Origin: a virus
Lineage: Duplodnaviria > Caudoviricetes
Virus record (IMG/VR): IMGVR_UViG_3300032208_000014
Span: 1-57,328 of that record
DNA length: 57,328 nucleotides
Direction: 5' to 3' (one strand)
Positions 8,559-49,163 of the stretch are shown here, one piece after another. Both the position numbers and the translations under genes were made by a program. How positions within the stretch are numbered: the stretch's first letter is position 1; each line of letters starts with the position of its first letter. The notes beneath the pieces are model-generated. The model did not search any database, was not told the origin of the DNA, and saw nothing but the letters and a program-made list of their open reading frames with translations.

Positions 8559-8770
8559 TGGATGTTGCAGACTTTTCAAAACATGTTTATAACTTACTAG
8601 CAAGACGCGAAGAGCAAATCGCGGAGATGCTAACATCTGGTGGTGTTCAAAACTTTGAGCAGTACCAGCGGCTTGTAGGCGAGGTACAGGGTCTTGTCTA
8701 CGCTAAAGAAGAGATTAAATCCCTGCTGGAGAAACACATAGACGATGCCGAAGACTTTATACGTTCCTGA
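8558..8770 (+). CDS. Small phage protein upstream of GroES-like gene
   Basis: 70 aa with EQYQRLVGEVQGL helix; TAATG coupling. Confidence 0.7.
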   Translation: MDVADFSKHVYNLLARREEQIAEMLTSGGVQNFEQYQRLVGEVQGLVYAKEEIKSLLEKHIDDAEDFIRS

Positions 8771-9206
8771 TCACATCGCGCAGGCAAAAGACAAACCCTC
8801 AGTTGAAACCGCTTATGTTGAGCAGACAGACAGGGTTCTTGACCCAAGTTTAATCGACAAATCTTTGACAGAACGCTTGCCGCAACCAACAGGTTGGCGG
8901 CTTCTTGTTATGCCTTATGCAGGTAAGGCTAAGACAGACGGCGGTATTTACATCCCAGATCAAGCACGAGAGCGGGAAGCATTAGCTACCGTTGTTGCGT
9001 ATGTTCTGAAACTAGGTCCATTGGCTTATCAAGATCCAAATAAGTTTGGAGACAATCCAGAGCCGTGGTGCGAAGAAGGCCAGTGGGTCTGCATAGGCAG
9101 GTATGCTGGGTCTAGATTTAAGATTGATGGCGGTGAAGTTCGCATTATTAATGATGATGAAGTTATCGCAACAATTCTTGAACCTGATGATGTAAAACAT
9201 GTCTGA
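8745..9206 (+). CDS. GroES-like co-chaperonin
   Basis: PTGWRLLV, KTDGGIYIPD, GRYAG, RIINDDEVIA match Cpn10 motifs. Confidence 0.85.
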   Translation: MPKTLYVPDHIAQAKDKPSVETAYVEQTDRVLDPSLIDKSLTERLPQPTGWRLLVMPYAGKAKTDGGIYIPDQAREREALATVVAYVLKLGPLAYQDPNKFGDNPEPWCEEGQWVCIGRYAGSRFKIDGGEVRIINDDEVIATILEPDDVKHV

Positions 9207-11251: not shown

Positions 11252-12163
11252 ATGGCTATTTCACGCGCACAACTCGCGAAAGAGCTTGAGCCTGGTCTTA
11301 ACGCTCTTTTTGGCATGGAGTACAATAGGTACGAAAACCAACATGCCGAAATTTTCACCACTGAGTCCTCAGATCGTGCATTTGAGGAAGAGGTGATGTT
11401 GTCAGGCTTTGGAGCCGCTCCGACTAAGTCGGAAGGTTCTGCCGTCAGTTTTGACGATGCCAACGAAGCATTCACCGCTCGGTACAACCATGAAACCATT
11501 GCACTGGCATTCTCAATCACTGAGGAAGCAGTCGAAGATAACCTGTATGACCGCTTGTCATCTCGTTATACTCGTGCTCTTGCCCGTTCAATGGCTCACA
11601 CAAAGCAGGTTAAAGCTGCATCTATCCTGAACAATGCATTTACCGCTGGCGCGTCAGCTGGTGGTGACGGTGTTGCTCTGTGTGATGCATCACACCCGCT
11701 TACAAACGGCAACACGTTTGCAAACGAACCCGGAACAGCTGCTGATCTGAACGAAACTTCTTTGGAAGACGCTTTGATCAACATCGCAGGTTTTGTTGAC
11801 GAACGTGGCCTGAAAGTTGCACTGCGTGGCACAAAGCTGATCATTCCGCGTCAGCTTCAGTTCATTGCAGAGCGTCTGATGGTGTCTAACCTTCGTGTTG
11901 GAACTGCTGACAACGATGTAAACGCACTTCGGTCAATGGGAATGTTGCCGGACGGCTACGCTGTCAACGACTTCTTGACAGACCCAGATGCGTTCTTCAT
12001 CATGACAGATGCACCTCGTGGCTTCTTGCACTTTGAGCGTGTTCCTCTGTCAACTCAGATGGAAGCAGACTTCGACACAGGCAACATGCGGTTCAAGGCT
12101 CGTGAGCGTTACAGCTTCGGCTTTTCTGACCCACGTTGCGTGTTCGGTTCACCCGGCGCATAA
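11252..12163 (+). CDS. Major capsid protein
   Basis: MAISRAQLAKELEPGLNALFG N-terminus and FKARERYSFG C-terminus are typical of this marine phage group. AAGGAG RBS; followed by a terminator. Confidence 0.88.
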   Translation: MAISRAQLAKELEPGLNALFGMEYNRYENQHAEIFTTESSDRAFEEEVMLSGFGAAPTKSEGSAVSFDDANEAFTARYNHETIALAFSITEEAVEDNLYDRLSSRYTRALARSMAHTKQVKAASILNNAFTAGASAGGDGVALCDASHPLTNGNTFANEPGTAADLNETSLEDALINIAGFVDERGLKVALRGTKLIIPRQLQFIAERLMVSNLRVGTADNDVNALRSMGMLPDGYAVNDFLTDPDAFFIMTDAPRGFLHFERVPLSTQMEADFDTGNMRFKARERYSFGFSDPRCVFGSPGA

Positions 12164-13336: not shown

Positions 13337-13557
13337 ACTTGAACAGCATCATAGGTGGCGCAACGTTAGGATTCATTGGTTGGATAGCTTTTAGCGTGGT
13401 TGATTTGAAGACAGAAACGGCTGTTATAGCTGTTAAAGTTGATCAAAATCATAAAATGTTAGCAGAGCTTTGGGATTATTATCTTCAAGACAGGGTGAAT
13501 AATGACAATATCGCGTGGGCAACTCGCAAGCCAGATATCAAAATCACCTCGAACTAA
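13324..13557 (+). CDS. Small membrane-anchored protein
   Basis: N-terminal TM (IIGGATLGFIGWIAFSVV); start uncertain. Confidence 0.55.
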   Translation: MEVLNLNSIIGGATLGFIGWIAFSVVDLKTETAVIAVKVDQNHKMLAELWDYYLQDRVNNDNIAWATRKPDIKITSN

Positions 13558-13744
13558 GGGGAAGAACATGGCAAAAGACGCATGTTACAAAAAGGTAAAA
13601 GCACGTTACAAAGTTTTTCCTAGTGCATATGCTTCAGGGGCTATCGCAAAGTGCCGCAAGGTTGGAGCGAAGAACTGGGGCACAGGTGGCAAGAAAAAGA
13701 AAAGGAAGTCTAGCAGTGGCAAAAGACGAGGTAAGACCTACTAG
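13502..13744 (+). CDS. Basic protein with MCP-like N-terminus
   Basis: MTISRGQLASQI then DACYKKVKARYKVFPSAYASGAIAKCRK. Confidence 0.7.
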   Translation: MTISRGQLASQISKSPRTKGKNMAKDACYKKVKARYKVFPSAYASGAIAKCRKVGAKNWGTGGKKKKRKSSSGKRRGKTY

Positions 13745-48327: not shown

Positions 48328-48435
48328 AGAAAAGGGGCGGTTCTTCCGCCCCTTTCTCGTATAGTGTTTTTTGGATTTAACGACCCGCATCTTGAACCTC
48401 GGATCTCGGATCTTTATCGGGTTACGTTTTGCCAT
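48319..48435 (-). CDS. ArfA-like 38-aa peptide, not in the ORF track
   Basis: Manual translation MAKRNPIKIRDPRFKMRVVKSKKHYTRKGRKNRPFSLI; DP.F..RV.K.KK..Y.RKG resembles the ArfA core. Confidence 0.6.
   Translation of the reverse strand: MAKRNPIKIRDPRFKMRVVKSKKHYTRKGRKNRPFSLI
48326..48356. terminator. Bidirectional intrinsic terminator inside the ArfA-like ORF
   Basis: AAAGGGGCGG-TTCTT-CCGCCCCTTT stem; on the minus strand it is followed by TTTTCTTT. Confidence 0.85.
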
Positions 48436-48601
48436 ATTCCTTTCGGATAAGCACCGCCAACTGCCGTGCTATTGTCCGCTCCTCTTCCTCTGCTGCGCTG
48501 CGCAACAAATTATAGGCATCAATCGGGACAGCCACATTTCGGAACTGTGCCTTATTCTCAACAGGGGGTCTACCCCTTTTTACTGCTTGAACCGCTTCCA
48601 T
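48422..48601 (-). CDS. 59-aa ribbon-helix-helix-like DNA-binding protein, not in the ORF track
   Basis: Manual translation MEAVQAVKRGRPPVENKAQFRNVAVPIDAYNLLRSAAEEEERTIARQLAVLIRKEYGKT; ATG directly after the upstream TAA. Confidence 0.7.
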   Translation of the reverse strand: MEAVQAVKRGRPPVENKAQFRNVAVPIDAYNLLRSAAEEEERTIARQLAVLIRKEYGKT

Positions 48602-49163
48602 TTATGCCGCCTTTCTTGGTCTGCCGCGCTTTTTCTTTTTGTTTGCGTGGTACTTTTCCCGAGCCTTCCGATTTCTTTCCAGTCGGGCTTTTTCCTCTTG
48701 GTCGTATTCCGTTCCGAACAGGGCGTTCAACCCTGGCTCTAGCTCCCTTGCTAGTTGAGCGCGAGGGATGTTCCGAGCCTTCCCCCGTGTCTCGCGATGC
48801 GGATCCACATAAATCATCTTCTCTTGGTCGTACACGAGATCCATTTCGTCTATCATGTTCACTAAGTTTCTGATCATCCGCAGGTCGCAATCCTCCAGAA
48901 TGAACCTGACGCTTTTTCCGCGCAGCAGGTTTAGTGTGTCGTTTATGACATTCAGTTGTGTTGACATCCTTGTGCCTCCTTACTTCTACTTCGATATAAT
49001 ACCCATGATGACCATCGCCTCTCCTCGGCACGCTGGCTTGCTGGTCCAGCTGGTCAATCACGGCCTCCAACTCGGTGGGCTTACAGACCACCTCCTTCAC
49101 AATCGCTTTCCTGTTTGAGTACAGCGTAATTGTGAAATCTAATATTTTATTTTCGTTCTTCAT
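48570..49163 (-). CDS. Hypothetical protein; first ~65 aa plausible, remainder overlaps the next gene
   Basis: Start overlaps the upstream gene; no stop until 48570. Confidence 0.45.
   Translation of the reverse strand: MKNENKILDFTITLYSNRKAIVKEVVCKPTELEAVIDQLDQQASVPRRGDGHHGYYIEVEVRRHKDVNTTECHKRHTKPAARKKRQVHSGGLRPADDQKLSEHDRRNGSRVRPREDDLCGSASRDTGEGSEHPSRSTSKGARARVERPVRNGIRPRGKSPTGKKSEGSGKVPRKQKEKARQTKKGGINGSGSSSKKG
48602..48967 (-). CDS. Protein with MCP N-terminal-like peptide and C-terminal AT-hook
   Basis: AAGGAGG RBS; IPRAQLARELEPGLNALFGTEY; KKRGRPRK. Confidence 0.75.
   Translation of the reverse strand: MSTQLNVINDTLNLLRGKSVRFILEDCDLRMIRNLVNMIDEMDLVYDQEKMIYVDPHRETRGKARNIPRAQLARELEPGLNALFGTEYDQEEKARLERNRKAREKYHANKKKKRGRPRKAA

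Follow-up and report, generated by a model that had tools for sequence, protein, structure and literature searches.

A copy of the capsid protein N-arm within an accessory early-operon protein of an uncultured marine podophage

Peptides that address proteins to the interior of a capsid are known from bacteriophage T4 and from encapsulins, and have been widely engineered in P22 particles; some of the T4 internal proteins act when the phage enters its next host. As a group these proteins are described (PMC3012670) as diverse, dispensable and partly DNA-associated, and as being directed into the prohead scaffolding core by a common short peptide. In the P22 procapsid, acidic residues of the N-terminal arm (N-arm) helix of the coat protein are reported to be bound by the C-terminal helix-loop-helix of the scaffold (PMC9965877), while in 80alpha the N-arm helix is reported as the chief binding site of the scaffold's C-terminal helix-and-hook, and the SaPI1 satellite protein CpmB as competing there with the 80alpha scaffold (PMC5644958). 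The present work concerns a gene, here named gene A, found in a 57,328-nucleotide stretch of viral DNA (the window; positions 1 to 57,328 of IMG/VR record IMGVR_UViG_3300032208_000014), the product of which carries an internal copy of the N-arm of the major capsid protein (MCP) encoded in the same genome. The phage is an uncultured marine podophage of HTVC023P-like type; gene A is a genuine gene of its early operon, accessory in status, and its product is a real, well-supported and unusual instance of a phage protein that mimics the phage's own capsid protein. The positions of gene A, of an overlapping open reading frame (ORF) here named ORF B, and of the other features discussed are collected in Table 1.

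Residues 67-88 of the gene A protein are identical to MCP residues 3-24 at 19 of 22 positions, with 47 of the 66 corresponding nucleotides shared and with different codons used at 13 of the 19 identical residues. The counts of identical residues and of differing codons, which had drawn attention to the gene in the original prediction, were recomputed and confirmed, and the match is borne out both by BLASTP of the gene A protein against the MCP (21/31 identities, E 5e-11) and by hhalign comparison of the gene A family profile with an MCP alignment (28 columns, probability 96.9%, E 1.6e-10). The copy spans MCP residues 3-24, with weaker similarity extending to about residue 30, and it has stayed equal to the MCP of its own clade (RAQLAKE...) rather than that of HTVC023P (RSQLVKE) or DSL-LC04 (RAQLVKE). 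Because only 28 profile columns, or 31 residues in BLASTP, can be aligned, the gene A product carries a capsid fragment and is not itself a capsid protein; it gave no capsid match in Pfam or PHROGs, and homology to the A and P domains was not found. The hexapeptide KARE[KR]Y, for which a six-frame translation shows just two sites, one in a conserved C-terminal strand of the MCP (12095-12112, plus strand) and one in the invariant basic block of gene A (48650-48667, minus strand), was considered as a second MCP-like stretch and set aside as a probable chance resemblance: its BLAST E is 0.66 and hhalign leaves it unaligned. A 608-bp metagenome contig (run X1, record 2) matches positions 48714-48745 alone, over 32 nt with 2 differences, and the sequence flanking the match reads like the beginning of an MCP gene from a different phage. 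Genes for related MCPs thus occur together in the same samples, and their DNA is occasionally close to that of the gene A motif.

The MCP was assigned on the basis of Pfam matches to Phage_capsid_4 (1.2e-11) and Mu-like_gpT (2.9e-5), a PHROGs match to phrog_371, major head protein (2.5e-22), and a comparison with Pelagibacter phage HTVC023P, whose capsid protein is 72% identical; in a profile search of the PDB the nearest entries were 9jod and 8rkc, both Mu GpT-domain capsid proteins. The copied segment is the N-arm of this HK97 fold. Of 80 IMG/VR relatives of the MCP (87-98% identical overall), 78 have the same residues 1-24, while position 25 is hypervariable, with at least seven different residues found there; the copy thus coincides with the invariant segment of the MCP. 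Distant Mu gpT-like capsid proteins retain the pattern K-x-L-x-P-G-[LI]-N...F/Y-G-x-x-Y. In the 97%-complete relative G004 (L031, L041, L046) the MCP gene is spread over three frames and has several in-frame stops, a breakage that probably arises from assembly or sequencing errors.

Marine metagenomes gave 182 relatives of gene A (E ≤ 0.01) and IMG/VR gave 27 loci; a tblastn search of a 50,697-record collection of cultured phages found no family member, and matched only MCP genes, through the motif. Alignment of 29 family members revealed a modular organisation of three conserved blocks, with linkers of 0 to about 80 residues between them: the N-domain (NDxLNLLRGKxVRFILEDxDLRMIxNLV...Y), the capsid-like motif (RAQLAKELEPGLNALFGxEY) and the basic block (RLERNRKAREKYHAKKK). 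The distribution of the motif was examined in 128 N-domain-bearing proteins, after seven rows had been dropped (P0001 as almost the same as the window, P0006, P0129 and P0121 as frame hybrids, and P0126, P0133 and P0134 as lacking the N-domain). The motif is present in 111 of these, nine have the basic block without the motif, and eight are short forms, motif-bearing forms being over-represented because the search query itself carried the motif. Among the 27 IMG/VR loci, 18 have the full motif and one (L017) a partial motif, six are short forms and two are cut by contig ends; in each of the six short forms, found at the same locus, the N-domain leads directly into KRGRPRK and the motif is missing. 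Long forms are represented by three proteins only (216-221 aa), acidic-insert variants of which none is fused to another domain. Within the window clade, alleles with identical N-domains differ in that some carry the motif and others a short acidic linker (P0003 versus P0011; P0002 versus P0009), and some of these linkers resemble remnants of the motif (AAQL..GLMETL; RSQLAAE). In this clade no motif-less allele lies on a contig longer than 14 kb, and none of the short-form IMG/VR records, all of them fragments, includes an MCP gene. The status of gene A as accessory follows from these short orthologues without the copy and close alleles that have lost it, together with complete sister genomes that lack the gene altogether.

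The copy is old, and it is under strong purifying selection. Comparison of 15 motif-bearing genes (105 pairs) gave, for the 20 codons of the motif, a synonymous difference (pS) of 0.50 and a nonsynonymous difference (pN) of 0.069, hence a pN/pS of 0.14, against 0.28 for the 46 codons of the N-domain and 0.17 for the basic block; judged by these ratios, the motif is the most constrained part of the gene A protein, above even the folded N-domain. The 66-nt motif stretch is 55-82% identical to the 87 MCP N-arm coding stretches with which it was compared (averages 61-76%), and five cognate gene A/MCP pairs, at 67-71% DNA identity, are no closer than the others. Recent capture or gene conversion was therefore rejected, the maximum over the 87 stretches being 0.82 and the cognate pairs standing at 0.67-0.71. 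Since the motif is found family-wide, at a pN/pS of 0.14 and with DNA at most 82% identical to MCP genes, the data speak for an old capture in which identity has been held at the protein level, and the earlier contention of protein-level selection as opposed to fresh duplication is upheld. Two findings had been named in advance as counting against it, namely a segment unique to this genome and near-identity in DNA to the MCP gene of another phage, and neither was obtained. Co-variation with the cognate MCP is uninformative, since the N-arm does not differ between the four cognate genomes or between the 78 relatives already mentioned. A motif so conserved, set between linkers that vary freely, would be consistent with burial of the peptide in an interface.

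The N-domain modelled alone with AlphaFold2 (AF2) gave a predicted local distance difference test (pLDDT) score of 91.6 and a predicted template modelling (pTM) score of 0.73, and this confident model shows a pair of long antiparallel helices with a beta-hairpin (H2-20, H26-41, E45-47, E52-54). A Foldseek search of the PDB with this model returned nothing at E ≤ 0.001, the best rows having E ≥ 1.2 and including some winged-helix domains at a probability ≤ 0.18, and the best VIA-align matches (Z 5.7) were generic helical hairpins. The whole-protein model fared similarly (Foldseek best E 0.64; VIA-align wide best Z 4.8, again generic helical hairpins); the ESM Atlas yielded only unnamed clusters, with a best score of 0.78, and Pfam and PHROGs contained no family for the gene A protein beyond a sub-threshold AT_hook. 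On the strength of the predicted hairpin, the N-domain is possibly an oligomerisation module. The copy segment is predicted to be helical (H69-84, pLDDT about 63-65). In the basic block the invariant columns are R95, E97, N99, R100, R103, E104, Y106, H107, A108 and K110, and the C-terminus is strongly basic throughout the family, the motif always lying upstream of it; by its charge, the Lys/Arg-rich helix with the tail that follows would be suited to DNA binding. The tail of the gene A protein, KKKKRGRPRKAA, had been said to be an AT-hook. RGRPRK is indeed present, but at 14.0 bits (E 0.048) it lies below the Pfam AT_hook gathering score of 17.4 and amounts to a resemblance, not a threshold match; and as [RK]GRP occurs in only 27 of 134 family proteins, about a fifth, it is the basic tail and not the hook that the family conserves.

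A candidate for the partner of the N-arm is encoded close to the MCP gene itself. The 306-aa protein listed in Table 1 as a putative scaffold is acidic at its N-terminus and coiled-coil in its middle part, where Pfam gives weak matches of coiled-coil type for the protein, and its C-terminus, GRRTVKLSPSQVAIAKKLGVPLEEYAKYVKD, is basic, helix-turn-helix-like and near-invariant in 29 homologues. HTVC023P and DSL-LC04, which have almost the same N-arm, retain this tail; in CRP-901, QDWS535 and GB2A other helix-turn-helix-like tails replace it, and the N-arms differ too. The pattern fits a scaffold whose tail would dock on the N-arm, and no library family names a scaffold for the protein, phrog_28737 being of unknown function. 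A complex prediction for scaffold residues 190-306 with gene A residues 58-121, run without controls, scored 0.01 against a mark of 0.32 and weighs neither way. The head module also contains a GroES-like co-chaperonin gene (8745-9206, plus strand), found at the same place in HTVC023P, DSL-LC04, CRP-901 and QDWS535. A further gene of this module (13502-13744, plus strand) specifies an 80-aa basic protein with a possible start, MTISRGQLASQI, that resembles the MCP start, MAISRAQLAKEL; relatives have similar starts, (V)AISRSQMSKQ and MTISRSSIAKQ, and a homologue in G022, a sister genome lacking gene A, is without it. The start codon of this 80-aa protein is uncertain, given a conserved internal Met and an overlap with the upstream gene.

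The genome represented by the window is complete or near-complete at ~57 kb, with genes for terminase, portal, DNA polymerase, helicases and primase. The minus-strand operon containing gene A lies ~37 kb from the MCP gene, on the opposite strand, and gene A is preceded by an AAGGAGG ribosome-binding site (RBS), both as had been stated in the original prediction. In all 14 related loci compared, the family occupies the same syntenic position, 3' of a DNA methyltransferase gene and small genes, and a ribbon-helix-helix (RHH) gene follows directly downstream; the translation upstream of gene A, GG(T/I/L)(R/K)M, is also kept in related loci. Variability within gene A is highest at codon position 3 (0.358), as against 0.199 at position 1 and 0.116 at position 2. 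Conservation, this codon-position pattern and the RBS together rule out gene A as a gene-calling artefact. None of the 24 sequencing runs listed is an RNA run containing the gene A stretch. The RHH product matches RHH_5 with E 1.2e-5 and 25.4 bits, just below the 26-bit Pfam cut-off; it begins MEAVQAVKRGRPP, which places a second RGRP 11 codons past the one that closes gene A, and in many relatives the two genes overlap, the RHH start lying 31-79 nt inside the 3' end of gene A.

Table 1. Positions in the window of gene A, its parts and the other features discussed
Feature	Position	Strand	Basis or remark
gene A	48602..48967	-	121-aa ORF; family, synteny, codon-position pattern
RBS of gene A, AAGGAGG	48975..48981	-	7 nt 5' of ATG, read directly
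N-domain, residues 1-55, alpha-hairpin and beta-hairpin	48803..48967	-	AF2; eleven invariant columns
MCP N-arm copy, residues 67-88, IPRAQLARELEPGLNALFGTEY	48704..48769	-	BLASTP, codon comparison, hhalign, pN/pS
basic block RLERNRKAREKYHANK, residues 95-110	48638..48685	-	ten invariant columns; within predicted helix H86-113
Lys/Arg tail with AT-hook-like RGRPRK, residues 111-121	48605..48637	-	sub-threshold Pfam AT_hook
ORF B, 197 aa	48570..49163	-	conserved 65-aa upstream part; -1 frame relative to gene A
ribbon-helix-helix (CopG-like) gene	48422..48601	-	Pfam RHH_5; ATG abuts gene A stop codon
terminator-like hairpin, 11-bp stem and T run	48330..48356	-	closes minus-strand operon
putative scaffolding protein, 306 aa	9199..10119	+	two genes upstream of MCP gene; phrog_28737
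major capsid protein (Mu gpT-like HK97 fold), 303 aa	11252..12163	+	Pfam, PHROGs, homology; N-arm 11258-11323

ORF B starts with a conserved 65-aa N-terminal part and meets no stop until 48570, its frame remaining open across the whole of gene A. Frame B has no stop within gene A, where synonymous shuffles would lead one to expect 3.4 (P 0.011), while the same frame of 33 other genes in the window contains 4-13 stops per 100 codons (about 8), with an observed/expected ratio of 0.97. When the equivalent frame was compared in L002-L016, L018 and L026, diverged relatives again showed few stops (one against 7.6 expected in L009, and none against 4.5 in L016); the B stop lies 0-6 nt 5' of the RHH start in nine of the 16 loci with B, and the frame is closed in three loci without B. 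Codon-position variability places amino-acid selection on frame A, and ORF B matched no family in Pfam or PHROGs. It is likely either that the two genes overlap, one perhaps nested in the other, or that coupling by read-through requires the open frame. Two of the proteins dropped from the motif count, P0006 (on a 57,466-bp contig) and P0129, are hybrids of frames A and B read from near-identical DNA, the frame switching at a G-run within the motif (48704-48760 region) and at an A-run after it. They are probably homopolymer sequencing errors, because contigs from three studies, possibly including the source of the window, show no indel; a 1101-bp region is identical in them, with zero differences.

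Given a motif conserved above the folded domain, variable linkers and a basic tail, the simplest explanation is that the peptide meets the partner of the genuine N-arm, and the P22 and 80alpha precedents make the scaffold C-terminal tail the most likely partner, or failing that a neighbouring MCP subunit. Foremost among the readings we therefore place, if only tentatively, one in which the N-arm copy serves as a tag for docking, by which a protein that binds DNA is recruited to proheads. The copy would occupy, in the procapsid state, the site offered to the genuine N-arm helix; this site would most likely be the near-invariant C-terminal helix-loop-helix of the putative scaffold, or alternatively the surface of neighbouring MCP subunits with which the N-arm pairs. 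Once docked, the DNA-binding protein would end up in or on assembling proheads, the outcome being either encapsidated cargo travelling with the DNA or a tether between DNA and prohead. That the putative scaffold tail is conserved together with the N-arm fits this proposal. A fuller version, in which the capsid N-arm serves as a portable label on a non-structural DNA-binding protein that docks on the scaffold tail, is packaged with the genome and is delivered to the next cell, from a locus that is also a nested two-frame gene pair, seems rather unlikely as a whole.

Several observations weigh against a docking tag. Gene A belongs to an early, regulatory operon beside an RHH regulator and not to the structural module, and the copy is internal, not N-terminal as the arm is in the MCP or as targeting sequences are in T4. 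Both gene and motif are dispensable: short orthologues and motif-less alleles exist, and the gene is absent from the sister genomes G022 (with terminal repeats) and G023 (98% complete), whose MCPs are 90-91% identical to that of the window and in which the full-family profile matches only the MCP N-arm and the N-domain profile, which recovers 5/5 positives in a control, matches nothing. In G022 an unrelated 156-aa gene precedes the RHH homologue. HTVC023P and DSL-LC04 also lack gene A. No prohead protease was matched in Pfam or PHROGs among the head-module genes scanned, and the scaffold assignment is itself inferred. Partner, binding and consequence are predicted from sequence and from the analogy with P22 and 80alpha. 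That the gene lies in an early operon and can be dispensed with argues against a core role in assembly, and is compatible with all of the accessory readings.

Next in our ranking, and on balance improbable, stands a role as an assembly competitor, timer or assembly-sensing regulator, in which the copy would bind the partner of the MCP, scaffold or MCP itself, without encapsidation. Produced early, the protein might titrate scaffold or MCP and so delay head formation; or free scaffold might sequester or release a DNA-binding regulator that reports assembly to transcription. The evidence from mimicry and selection supports such a role just as it does docking, the early operon, the translationally abutted RHH regulator and the DNA-binding-type tail would suit a regulator, and the competition of SaPI1 CpmB with the 80alpha scaffold is a reported precedent (PMC5644958). 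Against this, a protein competing for an essential and invariant interface would be expected to carry a cost, the alleles without the motif and the sister genomes without the gene show that any such control is dispensable, there is no known operator or target, and the binding is hypothetical here too.

The two readings ranked last, level with each other and each quite improbable, dispense with the assembly partner. An early protein displaying the N-arm epitope could act as an anti-defence decoy, occupying or misleading a host sensor of the invariant N-arm before the capsid protein appears. The motif comes and goes between alleles that share one N-domain, as the gene does between sister genomes, which is how conditionally useful arms-race genes would be expected to behave; gene A lies in a variable early region, and capsid proteins are described as triggers of bacterial immunity in the case of CapRel. 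An early copy of the trigger would, however, be expected to fire a sensor sooner rather than to block it, and a decoy leaves the conserved basic tail and the N-domain unexplained; no defence sensing the N-arm is known for these hosts, and a full-text search of a limited collection found no published capsid-epitope decoy and no published N-arm mimic. Alternatively, the old capture may now be an exapted helix, a generic amphipathic linker or self-association element with no remaining link to the capsid. The predicted helicity of the segment, an N-domain that looks like an oligomerisation hairpin and the location of the gene outside the structural module would accord with this, as would the finding that close alleles have a short acidic linker, unrelated in sequence, where the segment would stand; but a generic helix would be expected to drift, whereas about 20 consecutive residues have stayed identical to the MCP at saturating synonymous divergence, under more constraint than the folded domain, and with the boundaries of the copy coinciding with those of the invariant MCP segment.

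If the copy is indeed a docking tag, it would represent a new route by which phages load accessory proteins into heads or couple them to heads, and a ready-made handle for cargo loading into the capsids of an abundant group of marine phages. If it acts instead as a competitor or decoy, it would be a rare case of phage self-capsid mimicry, serving to time assembly or to evade capsid-sensing immunity. The natural motif-plus and motif-minus alleles with identical flanks make a clean test available.

Set beside known systems, the likeness to immunity triggers is one of concept only. Lit/Gol is a bacterial immunity triggered by the capsid, and with CapRel a short part of an MCP is described as able to act as a molecular pattern; for gene A, in contrast, no sensor, host or decoy precedent is known. 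AT-hook and HMGA-type tails share with the gene A protein, and with about a fifth of its family, an R-G-R-P core flanked by Lys/Arg, and in the short orthologues the hook directly follows the N-domain; unlike them, the gene A tail has a single, sub-threshold hook, most family members are basic without GRP, and minor-groove binding is at most predicted. The T4 internal proteins (IPI-III, Alt), described as unlike proteins sharing only a short capsid-targeting peptide (PMC3012670), offer a closer parallel. The T4 targeting sequence, however, is N-terminal, does not copy a capsid arm and is cut off by the prohead protease, whereas the gene A peptide is internal (67-88 of 121) and copies the MCP N-arm, no protease to remove it was found among the head-module genes scanned, and encapsidation is for gene A a proposal. 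A further parallel is the interface of scaffold C-terminus and coat N-arm (P22 gp8-gp5; the 80alpha scaffold-capsid protein pair) with its competitor SaPI1 CpmB, an interface that a second protein is described as able to exploit through its likeness to one side (PMC9965877, PMC5644958). CpmB resembles the scaffold side and is encoded by a satellite, whereas gene A encodes a non-structural protein of the phage itself and resembles the capsid side; and in the phage group of the window the corresponding interface is a predicted one. The mimicry seen in gene A is closest in kind to these two classes, the capsid-targeting peptides and the mimicry of the scaffold/N-arm interface.

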